From: a virus
DNA length: 64,000 bases
Direction: 5' to 3' (one strand)
Virus record (IMG/VR): IMGVR_UViG_3300009008_000010
Coordinates: 56,241-120,240 of that record
The position numbers were made by a program, and so were the translations under genes. Of the stretch, positions 21,698 through 56,939 are shown piece by piece. The notes below the pieces were generated by a model. That model was not told where the DNA came from. It saw only the letters and a program-made list of their open reading frames with translations, and ran no database searches. The first letter of the stretch is position 1; each line of letters opens with the position of its first letter.

Positions 21698-21931
21698 ATG
21701 GCTAAGGAAGAAGCGTTGACGGTTCAAGGTGTGGTAACACAGGCTTTGCCTAATACCACGTTCAGGGTAGAGATTGATATGCCGGATAGTGACAATATGC
21801 CCACAATTCTTGCGCATTTGTGTGGAAAAATGCGCAAGAATTATATTAAAATTGTTCCTGGGGACAAGGTTAAGGTAGAACTATCCCCTTATGACCTAAC
21901 CAAAGGGCGTATCGTTTTCCGAGAGAGATAA
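21698..21931 (+). CDS. infA: translation initiation factor IF-1
   Basis: [18 protein letters not shown]...[33 protein letters not shown]. Confidence 0.97.
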
Positions 21932-35996: not shown

Positions 35997-36069
35997 TACC
36001 AGGAATGCCTGCGGAACTACATTGGATTATGAAAACCAACCCCCAGTTTCGTGAAAATTTGTCCTGGTA
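35997..36069 (+). ncRNA. free-standing GAAUGC/UACA/UUUGUC module, copy A
   Basis: TACCAG/CTGGTA closing stem; motif shared with 38505, 39298, 42210, 47926. Confidence 0.7.
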
Positions 36070-36085
36070 TTTTTTTCGACACACA

Positions 36086-36179
36086 TGGCAGGTAGCTCAA
36101 AGCAGAGCGTTATTAAATCAGTGAAATTTCGGTTTTACAGATTTAATGAAGATGGTAGCTTCGCAACTACCCCTGCCAC
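36086..36179 (+). ncRNA. tRNA-like RNA with anticodon arm replaced by a long UUCG-capped hairpin
   Basis: TGGCAGG/CCTGCCA acceptor, GCTC/GAGC D arm, altered T loop CTTCGCAA. Confidence 0.75.
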
Positions 36180-36239
36180 TTTACAAAGGCTTAGCCGCCT
36201 TTGTGAATCGCCCCCTCACTTTGAGGGGGCGGGGGATTT

Positions 36240-36336
36240 GGTCGGGTAGCTCAGAGGTAGAGCGCTATCAAGCTGAAACTTACGCAAGTTCGTTCCAGGT
36301 TTTTAGAGGTCGATAGCTCGAAACTATCCCCGGCCA
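36240..36336 (+). ncRNA. tRNA-like RNA with extended irregular anticodon arm
   Basis: GGTCGGG/CCCGGCC acceptor, D arm, T arm GATAG-CTCGAAA-CTATC. Confidence 0.75.
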
Positions 36337-37588: not shown

Positions 37589-37674
37589 GACGACGTGGCC
37601 GAGTGGCTGAAGGCAACAGTCTGCAAAACTGTCGAGCGTATTGCTCCGCGTGGGTTCAAATCCCACCGTCGTCT
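37589..37674 (+). tRNA. tRNA-Cys(GCA) with long variable arm
   Basis: ACAGT-CTGCAAA-ACTGT; U73. Confidence 0.85.
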
Positions 37675-37695
37675 CTGATGTTTGATAATTTAAAT

Positions 37696-37770: not shown

Positions 37771-37859
37771 GTGTACGAGGCAGATACGGTTTGCTGCGCC
37801 TGGTTGTGGCCCAGGAGGTCGATACAAAGACCATGCGGGTTCGAGTCCCGTCGTACACC
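37771..37859 (+). tRNA. tRNA-His(GTG) with long variable arm
   Basis: CCTGG-TTGTGGC-CCAGG; C73; no encoded G-1. Confidence 0.85.
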
Positions 37860-37868
37860 CTTTAATAT

Positions 37869-38431: not shown

Positions 38432-38502
38432 GCAGGTGTCGTATAATGGTATTACCTCAGCCTTCCAAGCTGATGACGGGGGTTCGATTCCCCCTACCTG
38501 CT
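38432..38502 (+). tRNA. tRNA-Gly(TCC)
   Basis: TCAGC-CTTCCAA-GCTGA. Confidence 0.93.
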
Positions 38503-38504
38503 CT

Positions 38505-38584
38505 TAGGCGAATGCTAGATGGGATTACATTTTTTGACTCTCAATCAAAAGCGATGAAACGATCTCATTGATTTTTGTCGCCTA
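38505..38584 (+). ncRNA. free-standing module copy B carrying a Glu(CTC)-like anticodon stem-loop
   Basis: TAGGC/GCCTA closing stem, GAATGC, TACA, TTTTGA-CTCTCAA-TCAAAA, TTTTTGTC. Confidence 0.75.
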
Positions 38585-38587
38585 TAT

Positions 38588-38660
38588 GCTACCGAAGCCA
38601 AATGGCGAGGCGCTGGTTTTGTAAACCAGAAATAGATGGGTTCGATTCCCTCCGGTAGCT
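38588..38660 (+). tRNA. tRNA-Thr(TGT)
   Basis: CTGGT-TTTGTAA-ACCAG. Confidence 0.87.
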
Positions 38661-39297: not shown

Positions 39298-39392
39298 TTG
39301 GACGAATGCAAATGGGTTTACATTGGATAATTTCGTTCGACTCGAAAAGCGGGCCTAGCCCGTTTATGAAACTCATAATTTTTGTCGTCCAA
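39298..39392 (+). ncRNA. free-standing module copy C with T-loop-like hairpin
   Basis: TTGGAC/GTCCAA stem, GAATGC, TACA, TTCG-TTCGACT-CGAA, TTTTTGTC. Confidence 0.75.
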
Positions 39393-39398
39393 ATTTAA

Positions 39399-39486
39399 TG
39401 TAGGGTACGCTAACGGTAAGCGGACTGCCTGTTAAGCAGTTGTATTCCCTTAAATGGGTATGGAGGTTCAAATCCTCTCCCTACAG
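39399..39486 (+). tRNA. tRNA-Asn(GTT) with long variable arm
   Basis: ACTGC-CTGTTAA-GCAGT. Confidence 0.85.
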
Positions 39487-39545
39487 CTTGAAAAAATACT
39501 TCCAATACACTATATAACAGTATAAGTTATTTAAGTGTTGGAGGT

Positions 39546-40100
39546 ATGATGACAACAACAAACTCAGAATGTGTTAGACGTTGGAGGGAAAAAACTAAAT
39601 GTAGGTTGGTTGAAGGTTTTGGCGGTAAGTGTAACAAATGTGGTTATAATCGCTGTTATGCTGCTCTTGATTTTCACCACATAGATGAAACGCAAAAGAA
39701 TTTTGGTATTTCGGAGGCATTGGCAAAGCCTAAACGATGGGCAATACTTGTTGAAGAAGCCAAGAAGTGCGTTATGTTGTGTAAGGTTTGCCATGTAGAG
39801 TTGCATGAAGGAATTTGGAGTTTGTCCGAGATAGATTTGTTTGAGTTTAATTACGAGGAACAAAAATCTCAGAAAGAAATTCCAACGGGTGAGTGTCCTG
39901 TGTGTGGTAAAGAAGTTTTCTTAGGAAACATTACTTGCAGCAGGCGATGTGCGGCAAAGAAGAGAAACAAGATTGAATGGCCAGATAATTCTCAACTTTT
40001 AAAAATGTTGGAAGAAGGGTCTTTTGCTTCAGTTGCGACAGAGTTAGGAATCTCAGATGCAGCCATTAGGAAAAGACTCAAAAAATACGGCGCGGTGTGA
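39546..40100 (+). CDS. HNH homing endonuclease with C-terminal HTH
   Basis: GGKCNKCGYNRCYAALDFHH...KCVMLCKVCHVELH. Confidence 0.88.
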   Translation: MMTTTNSECVRRWREKTKCRLVEGFGGKCNKCGYNRCYAALDFHHIDETQKNFGISEALAKPKRWAILVEEAKKCVMLCKVCHVELHEGIWSLSEIDLFEFNYEEQKSQKEIPTGECPVCGKEVFLGNITCSRRCAAKKRNKIEWPDNSQLLKMLEEGSFASVATELGISDAAIRKRLKKYGAV

Positions 40101-40269: not shown

Positions 40270-40352
40270 GGGGTCGTCGCATAATGGTGATTGCACCGGA
40301 CTTTTAATCCGGCTCCGAAAGGACATTGCAGGTTCGAGTCCTGTCGGCCCCA
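40270..40352 (+). tRNA. tRNA-Lys(TTT) with long variable arm
   Basis: CCGGA-CTTTTAA-TCCGG; TCC-GAAA-GGA variable arm. Confidence 0.85.
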
Positions 40353-40363
40353 CTATGCTATGC

Positions 40364-40990: not shown

Positions 40991-41051
40991 CTTGGGGCTT
41001 GAGGCAATGCTAAGGCAACCTTACAGCCTGTGAAAGTCAGGCCCCTAATCT

Positions 41052-41335
41052 GCCGTCTTGGTGTGAATCGGTGAAGGGAGTAGACCGACCAATAAAGACG
41101 GTTCAAAAGGATCTGTGAGGGATTTTAAGAAAGGCTTTGAGTAACATCGCAAAAGGCACTAAAAACCGTGAGCCAGAGGAAGGGTCTGGACAGGCTTGAA
41201 GTTAAGTATTAAAATCTAGTAGTAGTTCTAAGTAGAATCGTTGAGTAGGGTCCGTTGAAACCGTAGCTAGGGAACACGCGCGTAGCATTTTGCGATTCGG
41301 AACGCGAAATATGGGTTCGAGTCCCGTAGGCGGCT
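41052..41335 (+). ncRNA. tRNA-shaped RNA with about 215-nt insertion in the D loop
   Basis: GCCGTCT/AGGCGGC acceptor, T arm ATGGG-TTCGAGT-CCCGT, TTGCG-ATTCGGAA-CGCGA arm. Confidence 0.65.
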
Positions 41336-42106: not shown

Positions 42107-42180
42107 GCCACCGTAGCTCAGTTGGTAGAGCGCTTGTTTCGTAAACAAGAGGTCGATGGGTTCAAATCCCTCTGGTGGCT
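42107..42180 (+). tRNA. tRNA-Thr(CGT)
   Basis: CTTGT-TTCGTAA-ACAAG. Confidence 0.9.
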
Positions 42181-42181
42181 C

Positions 42182-42310
42182 TGGCGGGTAGCTCAATTGG
42201 CAGAGCGCGTAAAAAAACTTCTCTGCAAAATTTGTCCGTAAGGAATGCTCGGTAGGGAATACAATGGTCTTCGGAACCCGTGGTTGCAAGTTCGAGTCTT
42301 GCCCCGCCAA
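42182..42310 (+). tRNA. tRNA with anticodon TCG (Arg) interrupted by a 56-nt insert (42210..42265) at position 28/29
   Basis: Removing the insert gives CGGGT-CTTCGGA-ACCCG and a full cloverleaf. Confidence 0.8.
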
Positions 42311-42313
42311 CTT

Positions 42314-42457
42314 GAGGGAATGACGTAACGGTAGCGTACCAGTACCGCTAGGCCCCAGAGCGTTGGGAGACACAATTAAATGTGGCACCCTAACCCTAAT
42401 TTGGGCATCGGTGTACAAATTAGGCTGGCAGTGTAGGTTCGATTCCTGCTTCCCTCA
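42314..42457 (+). ncRNA. tRNA body with 80-nt multi-hairpin domain in place of the anticodon loop
   Basis: GAGGGAA/TTCCCTC acceptor, D arm, CCAGT/GCTGG stem, T arm. Confidence 0.75.
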
Positions 42458-42542
42458 CTTGCTGTCAAAGATAGCAAAAAGATGCATTCCATGTAGCGAA
42501 AGATAACAAAAATGTTGCATTTCTATGTATGAAATGATTTAG

Positions 42543-42612
42543 CGGGGTGTAGCTCAGATGTTAGAGCGTGCGAAAATATGCAAGGTCGTTGGTTCAAGTC
42601 CAATCACCCCGA
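42543..42612 (+). ncRNA. tRNA-Pro-like body with shortened anticodon arm (pseudo-tRNA)
   Basis: CGGGGTG/CACCCCG-A acceptor; 14-nt TGCGAAAATATGCA arm instead of 17 nt. Confidence 0.7.
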
Positions 42613-42912
42613 CTTGATATGGGACAAAATATTAAAAGCCAAGGAACGGGCAATAAAAGCACTTAAGGAAAAGGATATGGCATACGATCCAGATAAAGAA
42701 CTGGTTTGTTTGAGGAAGCTGTGGGATGCGAGCGGTGGAAGTTGGATCACTACAAAAGAATTAGATGCTATCATGGAAGAAGTTTGGGGCGAGGAACACG
42801 GACTTGCCTGTAATTCCATGATGCGTCGAGGTTTAATTGACTACCACTGCGACGGAGATTGGTCAATTGAATTCACGGAAGAAGATTTAAAAGAGTGGGA
42901 AAGTGAAAGTAA

Positions 42913-42986
42913 CGGGGTGTAGCGCAGTCTGGCAGCGCGTCTGCTTCGGGAGTAGAAGGTCGCTGGTTCAAATCCAGTCACCCCGA
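42913..42986 (+). tRNA. tRNA-Pro(CGG)
   Basis: TCTGC-TTCGGGA-GTAGA. Confidence 0.92.
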
Positions 42987-43050
42987 CCTTTAGCTCAAAG
43001 AAGTTTGTTAATTTGACAAATCTTTTTGAGCGTCTATACTATATAAAAGT

Positions 43051-43524
43051 ATGGACAAATTAATTTTACAAGAGTTAGTCTCAAAAGGACTTTCCACACG
43101 ACAAATAGCAAAAGAAACCGGCAAAAGCCAAACTTCGGTAAGATACTGGTTGGGGAAGCATGAATTAAATACAACTCGTATTCATAAGTGTAAATGTGGT
43201 GAAACCGATAAAAAAAAGTTCCATCCAGGCAGGTATTCGGAGTGCAGGGAGTGCCGGAAGAAGTGGCAAAGGGATAGATTTAGAAGGCTTAAGAAATTTT
43301 ATGTAGACTACAAAGGTGGTAAGTGTGTCAAGTGTGGTTACAATAAATGTCAAGCCTCGCTCGATTTTCACCATCTTGAAGGCAAAGATCCTAATTGGAA
43401 ATACATGAGAAGGTGGGCAAAGAAGCGGGTGTTAAAAGAGCTTGATAAATGCATCCTGGTTTGTAGAAATTGCCACGGGGAGATACACTATAGCGAATAT
43501 ACTTCGGGCGAAACATGGTGCTAG
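43051..43524 (+). CDS. HNH homing endonuclease with N-terminal HTH
   Basis: GLSTRQIAKE; GGKCVKCGYNKCQASLDFHH...KCILVCRNCHGEIH. Confidence 0.88.
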   Translation: MDKLILQELVSKGLSTRQIAKETGKSQTSVRYWLGKHELNTTRIHKCKCGETDKKKFHPGRYSECRECRKKWQRDRFRRLKKFYVDYKGGKCVKCGYNKCQASLDFHHLEGKDPNWKYMRRWAKKRVLKELDKCILVCRNCHGEIHYSEYTSGETWC

Positions 43525-43594
43525 ATGCCATTGACGGGGCAAGGCGTTGCGCGCCCGCCTTTGATCCGTCTAGCCTGTAAATAAAGGATGATGA

Positions 43595-44200
43595 ATGCGG
43601 CTTTTTGTAAATAGCCACTCTATGGCATTACCTAAGCTGGAAACACCATTAGAGTCAACATGGCCTGTGTTATTGTCTGATAGACTTGGATGGCCTCTAC
43701 TTAATGTAAGTGAGGGGGGAGCGTTGCTTGCTCATTGTATGTCTAAGTTTTCACAGACTACAGTTGATGATGTAGTGGTGTTACATGCTGGTCTTGTGGA
43801 TTGTGTTGATAGGGATGTGGCAAAGTTTTACAAAGTGTTTCAGAGGAGATTTGGCGAATTTGGCACAGATATGAAATATCTGGATAGGTTTCCTCGATTG
43901 CGACTTCGTAGTATGCGAAAAATTAGACAGGACATTTTTAGAAACACAACGGAAACGATATGTGTGGTGTTGGCTTTACAGCATATTAATCAAGAACATT
44001 TGTTGAGACACCCACTGTGGAATAAGTCTGTTGATAGAGTCAATGGATTTCTACAAGAGTGGTGTGATATGGCAGAAACCAGGACATTTGTTGAGCCGCC
44101 CACATGTGATGATATGTTTTTAGGGGATAACTACCATTACTCAAAACATGGGCATGAAGTTATTGCTCATTTTTTGTTTGATGTAATTAGAAACAAATGA
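43595..44200 (+). CDS. SGNH/GDSL hydrolase-like protein
   Basis: VNSHS..P....TWP, G.VD, D.YHYS..GH pattern. Confidence 0.6.
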   Translation: MRLFVNSHSMALPKLETPLESTWPVLLSDRLGWPLLNVSEGGALLAHCMSKFSQTTVDDVVVLHAGLVDCVDRDVAKFYKVFQRRFGEFGTDMKYLDRFPRLRLRSMRKIRQDIFRNTTETICVVLALQHINQEHLLRHPLWNKSVDRVNGFLQEWCDMAETRTFVEPPTCDDMFLGDNYHYSKHGHEVIAHFLFDVIRNK

Positions 44201-46001
44201 ACGTTGATAAAAAAGAATTAGAAAAAATCAACAGGAGAATGGTTGGTTGGACTGTTGATCGTGTGGATAGCGGTCACGATGAAAACATATATATCATTCA
44301 CCTGTCTAAGGGAAAAAACAAGCGAAGCATTACGCTTTGTGGAAACGATCTTGGTGGATGGATGGGGCGATGACATATAAAATTCTCGTAATTGAAAGTG
44401 GTGTTGATTGTTGTGAGTGTAGCGGCGAATGTTACTGTGAACCAGAAATCAACACGCATGAGTTGTGTTTAACCGATCTTGCAAGATCAACAAATTACGA
44501 ATTAAAAGAGGCGGCTAACTCTTTGGTGGTTCAAGCGTTACAGGGCAGCGATGAAACATTGAGGGAACGCCTTCGCCAATTGGGATGGGTGAATTTAAAA
44601 GAAATCAAGGATAGGGAAGAAAAGCTGGCTGCTGGAAAACAGTTTTGGATGTATCAGGGAAACAGAATTGCCGACAATCGTTATGGTTGCTCTTTGAGTC
44701 CAGTTGATCTAGAGAATCTGAGTGTTCCTACGGTGCGAATGTTGGCCCGTGAGGATACGCATATTGTCCAAACTATCACCAAACCATCTTTAAAGAAGCT
44801 GTTTAACGCAGAGCAGAAGAAGGTTTATGATCAGGTGGCTAAGCAGGAGAAGAAAGAGAAAGAGAAAAAGGCTGCTGCTGCTAAGACAAAATTGGAGAAG
44901 AAAAAGCAGAGAGAAATTGCAAAGGCTAAGAAGATCCTAGCAGAAGCGGGAGAGACAAATGACAAGCCCTGAAGAAACTGAAAAAATACAGGCTTTGTTG
45001 AAACAAATAGGCGAACGAGCCAGACAAGAGGCGTGGGATGCTGGTGTCCCAACTTGCAGGATGAAAGATGGGGATATAGTCTGGGACTATCCAGACGGCA
45101 AGACTTACGGACACATACCACTTTTAATGTGTGATGACAGGGCTTTGTATCGAATATACTCTAGGAATTTAAGTTTCGGTGTGTTCAGCAAAGCGTCACG
45201 GGGGTTTGTTGGAATACGAGAGAAGTTCGGAGACTTATATTTATTCACCGAATTTCACTGGGATACTGGCCCGCCATTTGGAACGGTTCATCCCAAAGAA
45301 AAATTAGAAATGTTGCCAGAGGAGATGAGCCTTCTGGAAAGTTTGGGCACGGTTGGTGAAAAAAGCCGTCGTCCGATGGAGTTTTCCCAAGACTGGCGAT
45401 ACAAAGACACGAGTGAGTCTTGTAATGAGGCGCAGGGATGGAATGACAAGGATGGCGCAGTGGGAGAAGAAAGCGGAAGGCCACTTATAGCGGGTGAAAA
45501 TAAAGGATGGTATTACCTAGATACTAAGCAGCCCAAAACTGAAGAGGAATGGGCTGTGGGCGTCCCTAATGACGCATTGTTTAAGTGGCTAGAAGAAAAA
45601 GGGGAACAGTATAGGAGCAATGAATAGGAATTGGTTGTTAATTCTAATTATGTCTCTGGCGATTATAGGTTTTGTGATTTTTAACTCACAGACAAAGCCG
45701 GTGACGGAATTTGCTCCATTTTCAAGCGTTCCTCCTGAAGAACCAATTCCACCGGAAGATGAAAGGGTTATTCAAAGGATTGAAGAAATAAAGAGAGAGT
45801 TAAATAATGAACTCACTCTTTTAAAAGTTAGAGTGGATACGATTGCCACTCGCCAAGAAGGGGTTGGTGATATTGGGACTAGAGTAAGTAGGTTGGAGAC
45901 TAGGCTACGAAGTTTCGAGTATGAAGTTCAACGAATGGAACGAGATTTCGATAGACGAATCCGCCGATTGGAAATGGAGATCAGAGTAGAAGAATAAAAT
46001 T

Positions 46002-46075
46002 CGGGGCGTAGCTCAGCCTGGAAGAGCGTCGGCTTTGGGAGCCGAAAGTCGCACGTTCAAATCGTGTCGCCCCGA
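46002..46075 (+). tRNA. tRNA-Pro(TGG)
   Basis: TCGGC-TTTGGGA-GCCGA. Confidence 0.92.
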
Positions 46076-46112
46076 CTCAACTTTGGTTGAATTTGTGTTA
46101 TAATAGGTGTGA

Positions 46113-46184
46113 TGGCTTGTGGTGTAATTGGCAACACGTCTGTCTCTGGAACAGATATTCTAGGTTCAAGTCCTAGCAGGCCAG
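46113..46184 (+). tRNA. tRNA-Gln(CTG)
   Basis: TCTGT-CTCTGGA-ACAGA; TGTTATAAT just upstream. Confidence 0.92.
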
Positions 46185-46189
46185 CTTAT

Positions 46190-46263
46190 AGCAGGATGGT
46201 TACTGGTTTTACCCGCTGGGCTTCATACGTCCAGTTATGTCGGTTCGATTCCGACTCCTGCCA
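46190..46263 (+). tRNA. atypical tRNA-Met(CAT) with initiator-like A1xC72
   Basis: CTGGGC-TTCATAC-GTCCAG; weak D arm. Confidence 0.7.
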
Positions 46264-46265
46264 CT

Positions 46266-46436
46266 TCACTGTTGCCTAGCTTGCTAGGGTGTAGGGCCAC
46301 GTCCCAATACAAGGGGTTGGCGAATGCTTCGTAAGACGTTGGTTAGCCCTTCGGGGTGAAACAAGCCCACAGAATCCGTGTGGAGGCCGACGCATTTTAG
46401 GCTAAACTACCTGTGAGAATTTGGGATCAACAGTGA
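46266..46436 (+). ncRNA. unassigned structured RNA (about 170 nt)
   Basis: TCACTGTTG/CAACAGTGA terminal stem, internal UUCG hairpin, sits within the tRNA run. Confidence 0.55.
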
Positions 46437-46575
46437 TTTAATATGCCGCTTGAGGGAAAAACGTTGTGCGGCGGTAGGTTATTGCCGAAGTTATGGGTAA
46501 AGTCCAGCAAATTACTGGTGATCCCAGAAAGATAGGTGTAGCCAATACCCGCCGTGGACCCGATGGCGGCTCCAT

Positions 46576-46648
46576 GCTACCGAAGCCGAATGGTTAGGCG
46601 CGTTCTTGGTAAGAACGAGGAAGATGGGTTCGATTCCCTCCGGTAGCT
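46576..46648 (+). tRNA. tRNA-Thr(GGT)
   Basis: CGTTC-TTGGTAA-GAACG. Confidence 0.88.
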
Positions 46649-46650
46649 CT

Positions 46651-47454
46651 ATGAATGTGGCGTTAGTGGCAACGTGTCATCCTCGTGTAGAGATAGATTT
46701 CATTGCGGAATGGTTGAAACACTATGCCGCAATAGGTGTCGATTTAATTGATCTTTATATTGATCCTGCCTATACGAACAGTCCGTATAGAAGTCAGAAG
46801 CCTCAGTATAATTATTATGATGAATTGACAGACGAGGATGCGGTTGATAAATTCCAAGAAAGTGTGGCATCTTCAGGTGTTCGGTGTAACGTTAAAACAG
46901 GCGTTGCTGATGGTGGTTGGGGTTTACGTCAAGCCCAAAATATCGTGAGAACTCTTGACGGCGATGCTTTCCGTTGCGATTACTTGCTTCATTTGGATGT
47001 AGATGAATTTTTAATTCTGAAAGGGACTGGCAATTCATCCATTCAAGATAAATTGAACGAGTTGATCGAAGTGTATGGGGAAAACCACTTTGGATTTTAT
47101 CAAAATGTAATGGCTCCCCGGTGGAGCGAAAAATCCGTTTGGGATATTCGTTTGACAAAAGGGTGTATGCAGCATTCTTGGAAGTCTGCCGTTAATATTT
47201 CTCAGATAGGGAATCAATTAGACGAGGGAGGCGACCAAGAACGGGCATACAAAGCGATACACGGGAGAGTAGAACCACATATTGAAGTTCCATCCTGTCA
47301 TGCAAACGTTTTTCATTTTTCAGGATGGGACGAGGGTTCACGTCGCCAAGATGTTTTGGATAGATGGAATCCTTATGTAGTTTTTGAGACCACAGAACAC
47401 ATAGTTTATCGTGATTTTCTGTTGTTCTTAGCCTACGGAGGGGATAGTGATTAG
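46651..47454 (+). CDS. glycosyltransferase (GT2/GT92-like)
   Basis: FIAEWLKHY..IGVD..LYID; YLLHLDVDEFL. Confidence 0.8.
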   Translation: MNVALVATCHPRVEIDFIAEWLKHYAAIGVDLIDLYIDPAYTNSPYRSQKPQYNYYDELTDEDAVDKFQESVASSGVRCNVKTGVADGGWGLRQAQNIVRTLDGDAFRCDYLLHLDVDEFLILKGTGNSSIQDKLNELIEVYGENHFGFYQNVMAPRWSEKSVWDIRLTKGCMQHSWKSAVNISQIGNQLDEGGDQERAYKAIHGRVEPHIEVPSCHANVFHFSGWDEGSRRQDVLDRWNPYVVFETTEHIVYRDFLLFLAYGGDSD

Positions 47455-47896
47455 AGCCTGTATAACGGAAGAAGAGTTGCGAAGGGCTTTGAAGGACGTT
47501 GAAGAAGCTAAAGCAAAAGGATTTACTTCTTCCGTTGCAGTTTTAGAAGCCGTGAAGGTTGGTAGAAGCCTTTCGGATTGCGAGTTGGGTTACGATGGTG
47601 GCGTTATTTTAAAAGGCCACCCTGATGATCCAAAAAAAAACTGGGGTTATTGCAGCACCAAACAGATAGAGTGGTATAAATTAGTTGATAGAGAAGTAGT
47701 CGAAGATGACTAAATCAACAGAGTATAATCTTTGGTGTTGGATTCTCAGTTGGTTCGGAAAAAGAGAACGTGGCACCGTTGTTTTAGAATGTGAAGAAGG
47801 TCATCAACATACAATAAAAATCTGGCAGAAGCCAGGAGAAGACACTTGGGAGGTTATTCAAAAACAGGTTCAAGCGGAGTTTGATAAACAAAATAC

Positions 47897-48024
47897 TGGC
47901 GGGTAGCTCAATTGGCTAGAGCGCGAAAAAAACTTCTCTGCAAAATTTGTCCGAAAGGAATGCTCGGTAGGGAATACATTGCCTATTAAGCACGAGGTTG
48001 TGGGTTCGAGTCCCGCCCCGCCAG
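47897..48024 (+). tRNA. tRNA with anticodon ATT interrupted by a 54-nt insert (47926..47979) at position 28/29
   Basis: Removing the insert gives CGTGC-CTATTAA-GCACG; insert near-identical to 42210..42265. Confidence 0.8.
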
Positions 48025-48309
48025 CTTATGAAAGATTGCCCAGAAGAGAAGTGTTTCCACTGGATTTGCCCTGGTGGAGCGGCTGATATGTCTGGTAAAA
48101 TTTACCAGTCACTTCAGGAGAGTTTTGATCACGGAGATTGGGTTGAATTCCCCTATGGCGGTTGTTCTTGCGGATTCGGCAAGTGCAACCGCTTACACGA
48201 TGATGGCACGGAAGATTATTTTGAACCTTGTGGCGAAGAGGAAGTTGATGTTTGATGAGCCTGCTAAAAATGGGCAAAAGAAGAAAATGGTTTTCATGGA
48301 AGATCATGT

Positions 48310-56237: not shown

Positions 56238-56939
56238 ATGAAATTTTTAGTAGTAGTCCGCAGGACTGAAAAATGGAATGAACTTACAAGTAGGGAGATG
56301 TGTGACAAGATTCGGGAGCAAGCACCCGTTCGTCGCCCCGTTATAACTGATCTTTTCTTTGAGGGGGTTGAGCTATGGGATAAGGAATGCAGTATTTCTT
56401 TTTGTGAATATCGTCAGATTCTTTGGGAGATTGCGCAGGAGTCTTGGCAAAAGGCTGGTTTAGAGTGGATCGAATTTCAAGACTTTCAAAGTTTGCCTAA
56501 AGATGACGATTTAATTTTGCTTCCAACTGATGATGATGATGTTTACGCTCCTTTTATCAAGCGTGTATTAGAAAACCATTTTAGTGGCATGGATGGCTTG
56601 AAGTGGTCGCCTGTTAGGTATTTTCCTATTACCAACAATATAAGTAGTTTTGATAACGGTATTGTCGGAACTAACTCATATGCACTTAGGTCTACTGCTG
56701 TTTTTAACCGAGGTCAGATAACGGCTCATTCTCAGGGTTTTTATAATCTTGAAAAAACCAAACATTTAGATATGTGTTTGTCTTTATCTTTATCAATTCG
56801 ACACCCAGCGTCTATTAGTTTCTTAGAGGGCGTTGTTGAAGACAACAAAAGCAGAAGTGCGGATTTACCAAGGTGGTTCCAAGAGACGGCTGATCGCCTT
56901 CACAACTTGACAGTTAATTTAGGGTTGAGTAAACTATGA
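56238..56939 (+). CDS. possible glycosyltransferase-like protein
   Basis: ILLPTDDDD (DxD-like); HPAS motif. Confidence 0.45.
   Translation: MKFLVVVRRTEKWNELTSREMCDKIREQAPVRRPVITDLFFEGVELWDKECSISFCEYRQILWEIAQESWQKAGLEWIEFQDFQSLPKDDDLILLPTDDDDVYAPFIKRVLENHFSGMDGLKWSPVRYFPITNNISSFDNGIVGTNSYALRSTAVFNRGQITAHSQGFYNLEKTKHLDMCLSLSLSIRHPASISFLEGVVEDNKSRSADLPRWFQETADRLHNLTVNLGLSKL

Follow-up and report, generated by a model that had tools for sequence, protein, structure and literature searches.

Candidate tRNA-ordered Y RNAs with a putative Ro60-docking arm in the tRNA array of a huge phage

Is a short structured insert that splits the anticodon stem of two phage tRNA genes an intron that is cut out of the precursor, or an arm that remains on the RNA? 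The question is raised by a stretch of 64,000 nt, referred to here as the window, that forms the last 64 kb (positions 56,241 to 120,240) of the IMG/VR record IMGVR_UViG_3300009008_000010. This record has 120,240 nt but was rated only ~24% complete by CheckV; the phage is therefore huge. The window harbors a long tRNA array with 31 genes according to ARAGORN at default settings and 30 tRNA matches at the Rfam gathering score. Neither of these searches called the two interrupted genes, which had been noticed in a first-pass annotation of the letters. There, two readings were offered: a new class of small tRNA introns or a protein-binding domain retained on a tRNA, that is, a tRNA-Y RNA chimera. 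The analysis described here argues for the latter. Both genes probably encode tRNA-ordered Y RNAs, in which a docking arm for Ro60 is retained on the anticodon stem, rather than tRNAs that contain an intron; this assignment is made from sequence comparison and predicted folds.

The first gene (chimera 1; 42182..42310, plus strand), whose cloverleaf elements were read from the sequence, extends from the 5′ strand of the acceptor stem to a discriminator A, and the second (chimera 2; 47897..48024, plus strand) ends with a discriminator G. They have the acceptor stem TGGCGGG/CCCGCCA (7 bp) and the D arm in common, and in both the insert follows directly after the second pair of the anticodon stem, which corresponds to canonical position 28/29; the D loop of chimera 2 has one extra base, so that its insert lies at linear position 29. 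In chimera 1, the 5′ tRNA part with acceptor strand, D arm and nt 26-28 (42182..42209) is followed by the 56-nt Ro60-handle arm (42210..42265), which was recognized by its fold, by matching words and by a covariance model described below, and by the 3′ tRNA part (42266..42310), consisting of the hairpin GGU-CUUCGGA-ACC, a CG that closes the composite anticodon stem, variable loop, T arm, acceptor strand and discriminator. The arm of chimera 2, recognized by fold and covariance model, has 54 nt (47926..47979) and precedes the hairpin UGC-CUAUUAA-GCA, CG, variable loop, T arm and acceptor strand (47980..48024). Downstream of the insert both genes thus have three stem bases, a 7-nt loop, the returning strand, a 5-nt variable loop, the T arm and the acceptor 3′ strand; in both, the D arm is complete and has GG, and the T arm has UUCGAGU. 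What they lack is the contiguous 5-bp anticodon stem of a canonical tRNA, since both stems are split 2+3 bp by 54-56 nt.

Removal of the insert restores a 5-bp stem in both genes, as claimed in the first-pass annotation: CGGGU/ACCCG with the loop CUUCGGA and the anticodon-like triplet UCG in chimera 1, and CGUGC/GCACG with the loop CUAUUAA and the triplet AUU in chimera 2. An A34, as in AUU, is unusual for an anticodon. The shared acceptor stem, the site and the insert lengths were confirmed as well. That the only internal difference keeps a GNRA loop is right as far as substitutions are concerned (GUAA vs GAAA in the tetraloop), but a 1-nt indel at each boundary sets the inserts apart as well. 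Searched separately, both halves of the insert were found exactly two times in the window, where shuffled sequences predict 0 occurrences, and two times in the whole record. When ARAGORN was run with introns allowed, both chimeras were called, but with a wrong intron position and a wrong anticodon; the Rfam tRNA model (RF00005) gave a partial match to copy 1 (21.1 bits) and none to copy 2.

Taken alone, the insert folds into an 8-bp helix S, an asymmetric internal loop in which UUUGUC faces GAAUGC, and a 3-bp helix P1 with a GNRA cap; helix S is followed by UACA. In chimera 1 (plus strand), a linker (42210-42218) leads to the 5′ strand of S (42219-42226), the loop strand AAAAUUUG (42227-42234), the P1 hairpin UCC-GUAA-GGA (42235-42244), the loop strand AUGCUCG (42245-42251), the 3′ strand of S (42252-42259) and UACAAU (42260-42265); in chimera 2, P1 is capped by GAAA. 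The same words are found in the Y RNA YrlA. Its Rfam consensus, cggCgaAUGCuuggGgaaCUA ... uucCccaaAaAcUuGucGccg, has ...CgaAUGC-helix-CUA at the 5′ end and helix-AaAcUuGuc-G... at the 3′ end; these words are placed relative to the two helices as they are in the inserts. The stem with the words GAAUGC and UUGUC is the proposed Ro60/Rsr-binding site of YrlA, in which the 5′ strand of the conserved helix has GNCGAAN0-1G and the 3′ strand UUGUC (Chen et al. 2014, PMC4201824). Both inserts have GAAUGC, UUUGUC, both helices and UACA, with a G in place of the C of CGAA (GGAAUGC). Judged by these words and by the predicted fold, the inserts match the Ro60/Rsr-binding 5′/3′ stem of YrlA in circularly permuted order. 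Indeed, the order seen in the chimeras (acceptor, D arm, S1, loop strand, P1 hairpin, loop strand, S2, UACA, anticodon part, T arm, acceptor) matches that of YrlA when reading begins at the closed acceptor-like loop of YrlA. RF02553 gave no match on either insert at E ≤ 10, and its gathering score (69 bits) was accordingly not reached; since the chimeras are a circular permutation of YrlA, the Rfam model cannot align them.

The likeness to YrlA (RF02553; PMC4201824; Wang et al. 2018, 10.1101/312249) comprises the Ro60 element as far as it is kept (helix, GAAUGC facing UUGUC, helix, (C/U)UAC), a tRNA-folded domain with D and T arms and, in the relatives of the chimeras, a gene position next to Ro60/rsr on the same strand. 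However, in YrlA as published both ends of the RNA are part of the Ro60-binding stem, the acceptor stem is closed into a loop, and an anticodon loop and a free CCA are missing. In the chimeras, S opens toward the tRNA, a tetraloop closes P1, the ends of the RNA pair in a regular 7-bp acceptor stem, and the RNA retains an anticodon-like hairpin. By their predicted Ro60 handle and their tRNA mimicry the chimeras are of the YrlA kind, yet they depart from it in topology and in Rfam score. A Y RNA whose tRNA-like acceptor end is open and bears CCA is also known, namely processed YrlA of M. smegmatis, but it consists of two base-paired pieces of 82 and 65 nt (Chen et al. 2014, PMC4201824), whereas the chimeras are single chains because their Ro60 stem is closed. 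Phage-encoded Ro60 with adjacent small partner RNAs is known as well: Y RNA-like RNAs together with a phage Ro60 are reported for mycobacteriophages, Bacillus phage G and CcrColossus (Chen 2014 as cited in PMC12135203), and the phage phiLo has Yrl1 and Yrl2 (PMC12135203). In PMC12135203, these RNAs are described with the usual 5′-3′ stem topology and not as whole tRNAs. We found no description of a tRNA-ordered Y RNA in the full-text literature; the supplement of Chen et al. 2014 (YrlA loci, 22 phages), where one could hide, and two reviews were outside the scope of this search.

The arm also occurs in tRNA-like genes of other phages, where it was found with degenerate patterns of its conserved words. 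A first scan of phage contigs gave 10 loci, of which 2 were real and 8 due to chance; a second gave at least 113 stretches, which were filtered for S1/S2 pairing and tRNA context. Among the matches listed, 14 in 9 records were kept, and the rest, mostly repeated coding sequences, were dropped. The inserts of the window lie outside the pattern of the second scan, with a spacer of 11 nt where 7-10 were allowed. Because helix S was out of register in a MAFFT alignment of 16 modules (A3), the covariance model R1 was built from 8 of the 16 (A4), all from other phages and none from the window, and Infernal then realigned all 22 modules. Applied to both strands of the window with filters off, R1 returned the two inserts as its top matches, chimera 2 at 47930-47980 (38.8 bits, E 3.5e-5) and chimera 1 at 42215-42265 (35.6 bits, E 1.4e-4). 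A third match at 21802-21847 (23.2 bits) was rejected as a plain perfect 15-bp hairpin. On the whole 120,240-nt record the two inserts were the only matches.

Over 13 loci, R1 found 22 arms at E ≤ 0.05 from 10 phage records, that of the window included. Searches of the ten whole records at E ≤ 0.01 gave 1-3 arms each, 20 in total and none of them outside a tRNA region; two further arms were seen at E ≤ 0.05 in the locus search only. Among the 22 modules of the 10 records, aligned with R1, 97.1% of the cells are paired vs 73.7% in shuffles, and 53 cells are changed on both sides vs 16 ± 2.8 in shuffles, a value that 0 of 500 shuffles reached. Compensatory change affects eight of the ten pairs, including all seven pairs of helix S, and the signal was destroyed when the partner column was shifted by one. 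A gene in a 532-kb phage (L132:2816-2940) resembles an ortholog of copy 2 of the window; it has a compensatory change in the acceptor stem from C-G to U-A, and its helix S is different and yet pairs. Record G003 has a near-identical module on two different tRNA bodies. Homologs with covariation therefore exist, and the first-pass annotation had named their absence, or a recent duplication of a decayed tRNA, as outcomes that would speak against its proposal; neither applies.

A stringent pattern, which covers only modules with a 2-bp P1 and a 4-nt loop, gave 5 hits in a set of one genome per prokaryote species, none of them embedded in a tRNA. In crAss001 there was no match to R1, and neither ARAGORN with introns nor motif searches of the first 7 kb, which hold the tRNA array, found anything; an arm in this phage may belong to a different subtype. 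Protein searches for relatives of the phage gave none via a 310-aa methyltransferase and only distant partial matches via a 1270-aa FG-GAP protein, and tblastn of all open reading frames of the record of at least 80 aa against 20 related loci gave few hits and no indication of close kinship with the 532-kb phage.

The proposed ligand of the arm is encoded close by in the relatives. Of five carrier records searched with the Pfam TROVE model, four gave a gene; the encoded proteins have the Pfam domains vWA_Ro60 and TROVE, and their PDB matches are Ro60 of phage phiLo and Rsr of D. radiodurans. With a carrier Ro60 as query, the gene was also found in the other five records, including two in which the TROVE model had missed it. 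Ro60 is thus encoded in all nine other carrier records, in eight of them on the same strand and 0.24-1.07 kb away from a chimera and in the ninth at a distance of 11 kb. For YrlA, the criterion used by Chen et al. 2014 (PMC4201824) is a gene on the strand of rsr/Ro60 and no more than about 4 kb away from it; eight of the nine other records conform to it, and the record of the window, in which no Ro60 gene was found, does not. In five phages of ~185 kb the gene order is Ro60, tRNA-Pro and two or three chimeras. Rfam YrlA and YrlB gave no match at E ≤ 0.05 in 9 loci from six carrier records (Ro60 neighborhoods and other chimera sites), and the chimeras are therefore the only Y RNA candidates found there. 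Three relatives exceed the gathering score of the Rfam tRNA model (>29 bits), which treats each of them as a tRNA that contains a large insertion.

Myxococcus phage Mx1 has a Ro60 with 38% identity and no R1 match. In one phage that is 98% complete, the Ro60 gene (G002:C1:152633-154212; L140, L142) contains one in-frame TAA, which may reflect a split gene, a pseudogene or an assembly error. Just upstream of the Ro60 gene of another record (G001) lies a group I intron (L139:1139-1377; RF00028 full model, 83.6 bits).

Is the arm retained, or is it removed? Several observations weigh against a retained Ro60 arm. Exact removal of the insert yields flawless cloverleafs in both copies, and the split anticodon stem is kept paired in both copies and in nine further genes, which an intron explains more simply. 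The alignment used to measure covariation was fitted to the R1 model, which favors pairing. The published GNCGAA motif is kept only in part, since the inserts have GGAAUGC with G at the position of the C of YrlA. Moreover, neither a family search nor tblastn with four phage Ro60 proteins found a Ro60/TROVE gene in the 120-kb record (~24% complete), and the link to Ro60 in the phage of the window therefore rests on the relatives and on the RNA motif.

The intron reading sees in the insert a new small intervening sequence that is cut from the precursor, perhaps with Ro60 as cofactor, to give a decoding tRNA-Arg(UCG) and a decoding tRNA-Asn(AUU). Like archaeal bulge-helix-bulge introns at non-canonical positions and bacterial group I introns of tRNAs, it would be an extra sequence in a tRNA gene whose exact removal restores the cloverleaf with 5-bp anticodon stems and 7-nt loops. 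The 28/29 split with a perfect composite stem recurs in nine other genes of different sequence (one of them with the arm at 29/30), every stem difference between the copies of the window retains pairing, and the near-identical module on two tRNA bodies in G003 is as expected of a spreading element. However, when the 22 genes were sorted by hand, four layouts emerged. In 11, including both genes of the window, the arm interrupts the anticodon stem on its 5′ side (at 28/29 in ten, at 29/30 in one), and all 11 have a perfect composite 5-bp stem and a 7-nt loop. In four the arm separates nt 31 from nt 32. Another five are built on a Leu-like body that combines a 5-bp stem, the arm and one more hairpin, the loop of which has 9 nt; removal of the arm would here yield a 9-nt loop on an over-long stem. 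In the remaining two the arm replaces the anticodon arm or the body is reduced; one of them is a clean four-arm cloverleaf with the Ro60 handle in place of the "anticodon arm". The position is thus not fixed. In addition, U33 is absent in 5 of the 11 split-stem loops, and three members, one with a split stem and two with the arm at 31/32, have A34 (AUU, ACA, AUA).

Nor do the inserts resemble known introns. They gave no match to the group I model RF00028 at E ≤ 10 and are 54-56 nt long vs a core of ~200 nt or more, whereas the same library detected the group I intron of L139 (83.6 bits). A bulge-helix-bulge, with two 3-nt bulges on either side of a 4-bp helix at the boundaries, could not be drawn by eye: the end of exon 1, GCGCG, has no 4-nt complement near the 3′ boundary (GGGAAUACAAU), neither for GCGC nor for CGCG. 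This agrees with the earlier statement that the insert is neither group I nor bulge-helix-bulge. RtcB was found neither in the record of the window nor in five complete carrier genomes, and UACA, the would-be 3′ end of the intron, belongs to the consensus of mature YrlA. In contrast to both intron types, the inserts vary in position and correspond to a known protein-binding element. Because no boundary structure is shared, although removal by one machinery would require it, no bulge-helix-bulge, group I match or RtcB was found and UACA is part of mature YrlA, we read the arm as permanent; the varying position, the degenerate anticodon loops of several members and the gene without an anticodon arm make retention the most likely outcome. 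An intron is improbable, and of the two readings in the first-pass annotation this one was not supported; the retained protein-binding domain is supported by the YrlA stem strands and helices, by a covarying family and by the Ro60 genes next to it in other phages.

Could the genes be functionless instead, decayed tRNAs that were struck by a short mobile or repeated element? The two copies differ in 4 of 85 aligned columns in 5′ part and insert (95% identical) vs 15 of 45 in the 3′ part (67% identical; Fisher p 2.5e-5), and a near-identical 5′ part and insert next to a diverged 3′ part suggests recent copying. However, 9 of the 15 differences in the 3′ parts fall in stems and pairing is kept in all nine, with four two-sided pair changes, two in the anticodon stem and two in the T stem. 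Since all stem differences keep the pairs, both genes are under selection for the tRNA fold. The near-identical 5′ part and arm here vs the shared arm on different bodies in the 532-kb phage suggests gene conversion or intragenomic copying of the arm. Decay is also at odds with the compensatory changes in acceptor stem and module of the ortholog-like gene of that phage, with the covariation of the module family, with the orthologous triplets kept beside Ro60 in the five ~185-kb phages and with the presence of the inserts in DNA contigs of two other studies. DNA contigs from four runs contain for the most part unrelated tRNAs; the inserts are covered by a small number of contigs (0 differences over 47923-48100, 4 over 42135-42284), and no allele without the insert was found among them. 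Exact insert halves had 0 matches in a viral contig collection. We consider pseudogenes highly improbable.

How might a tRNA-ordered Y RNA work? The chimeras would be released from the transcript of the tRNA array by RNase P and the 3′ tRNA-processing enzymes, as would the neighboring tRNAs, and CCA would be added. An open acceptor end on a Y RNA has a precedent, since in M. smegmatis RNase P cleaves YrlA in vivo and CCA is added (Chen et al. 2014, PMC4201824). The arm would remain in the mature RNA of ~130 nt and dock to a Ro60 ring. Ro60 itself may be phage-encoded, as in the nine other carriers, and lie in the ~76% of the genome outside the record; otherwise it would be that of the host. 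The tRNA body with its free acceptor end and anticodon-like hairpin would be the counterpart of the tRNA-like effector domain of YrlA and may tether Ro60 to a tRNA-binding partner or gate the Ro60 cavity. It is tempting to speculate that the complex serves in quality control or repair of RNA or tRNA during infection. Ro60 and Y-like RNAs of the Thermus phage phiLo assemble with host PNPase in vitro (PMC12135203), and Ro60 of jumbo phages is discussed as part of RNA repair (PMC7824862).

Alternatively, the arm binds Ro60 and the tRNA body is only a scaffold for processing and stability, providing precise excision and a long half-life; a tRNA-like partner would not be involved, and the chimeras would be the natural equivalent of the "tRNA scaffold" used in the laboratory. 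Such a role would fit chimeras that lie inside tRNA arrays with intact RNase P determinants, that use bodies of many unrelated tRNA types and that include two members with reduced bodies. Yet a scaffold has no need of the anticodon-like hairpin, which is kept with compensatory changes, and canonical YrlA is also a precise tRNA mimic (10.1101/312249), which argues that the tRNA shape itself is used. We regard a mere scaffold as rather unlikely. Decidedly doubtful is the assumption that the genes encode working pre-tRNAs or chargeable tRNAs, in which the handle would be an intervening sequence removed on demand with the help of a protein, or in which the full-length RNA would be aminoacylated with the anticodon hairpin in use. 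Were this the case, the perfect split anticodon stems of 11 of the 22 members would reflect decoding and not shape alone. On-demand removal would then add a third kind to the known tRNA introns, the first one outside groups I and II in bacteria or phages, and aminoacylation of the full-length RNA would physically couple Ro60 surveillance to synthetases, EF-Tu or the ribosome.

Apart from the tRNA-ordered candidates, the array has three Y RNA-like RNAs of known topology, all on the plus strand. A YrlA-like RNA directly 3′ of tRNA-Met (35998..36071; RF02553 full model, 29.5 bits, E 3.3e-5 for an 80-nt stretch; gathering score 69) has AAAAUUUGUCC and GGAAUGC in common with the inserts. A YrlB-like RNA lies between tRNA-Gly and tRNA-Thr (38500..38589; RF02565 full model, 25.3 bits, E 0.053; gathering score 97), and a second YrlA-like RNA with a T-arm-like hairpin between tRNA-Asp and tRNA-Asn (39299..39394; RF02553 full model, 33.3 bits, E 3.2e-6 for a 100-nt stretch, below the gathering score). 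These matches were obtained without a gathering cut-off, and all three are below the curated cut-offs. Each RNA folds independently into P1, the internal loop of the inserts and S, with the layout P1-AAUGC-S-UACA-variable-S′-(A/U)UUUUGU-P1′, and the second and third RNA in the array retain CGAAUGC. The window stands out in three respects: two chimeras accompany these free-standing RNAs within a single tRNA array, no Ro60 gene was found nearby, and the two chimeras are nearly identical in 5′ part and arm but diverged in their 3′ parts.

The array has further unusual genes. Directly after the first free-standing Y-like RNA, a tRNA-like gene (36087-36181) has a clean cloverleaf whose anticodon arm is a 10+7-bp rod (fold z-score −5.06); it was missed by ARAGORN and Rfam alike. 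An RNA of 97 nt (36240-36336), an Rfam tRNA match only in a permissive search (42.6 bits), has extra hairpins between the D and T arms. The genes for tRNA-Cys, -His, -Asn and -Lys (37589-37675, 37771-37860, 39399-39487 and 40270-40353) are 84-90 nt long with long variable arms, which is unusual for these types. A structured stretch 3′ of tRNA-Asp (40994-41140) has the words AAUGC...UACA; the site at 41006 was rejected as an arm since it has no P1 partner. Three nt past chimera 1 starts a third tRNA body (42314-42458; acceptor GAGGGAA/UUCCCUC) whose anticodon region is an unrelated multi-hairpin insert of ~85 nt without an R1 match. Next, an Rfam tRNA match of 49.5 bits (42543-42612), missed by default ARAGORN, has a shortened anticodon arm, in which a stem of 3 bp carries a loop of 8 nt. 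The array also encodes two small proteins that show weak helix-turn-helix matches (39546-40100 and 43051-43524); in two further phages (L119, L047; tblastn E 7e-27 to 2e-11), homologs of both lie beside the chimeras.

Conservation of Y RNAs and Ro60 extends from bacteria to humans, and we know of no identified partner of the tRNA-like half of bacterial Y RNAs. In the published view, YrlA resembles a circularly permuted tRNA without CCA end or anticodon loop (10.1101/312249). The chimeras would be its un-permuted counterpart, that is, complete tRNAs whose acceptor end is free, which often have an anticodon-like hairpin and from which the Ro60 handle branches off as a side arm. Should this be confirmed, they would establish a direct evolutionary link between tRNA and YrlA and would mean that phages place partner RNAs of Ro60 within tRNA arrays, for release by the tRNA-processing enzymes. 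They would also flag a systematic annotation error, as gene finders miss the chimeras or call them intron-containing tRNAs with wrong anticodons, and charging of Y RNAs or their binding by tRNA enzymes would become testable.

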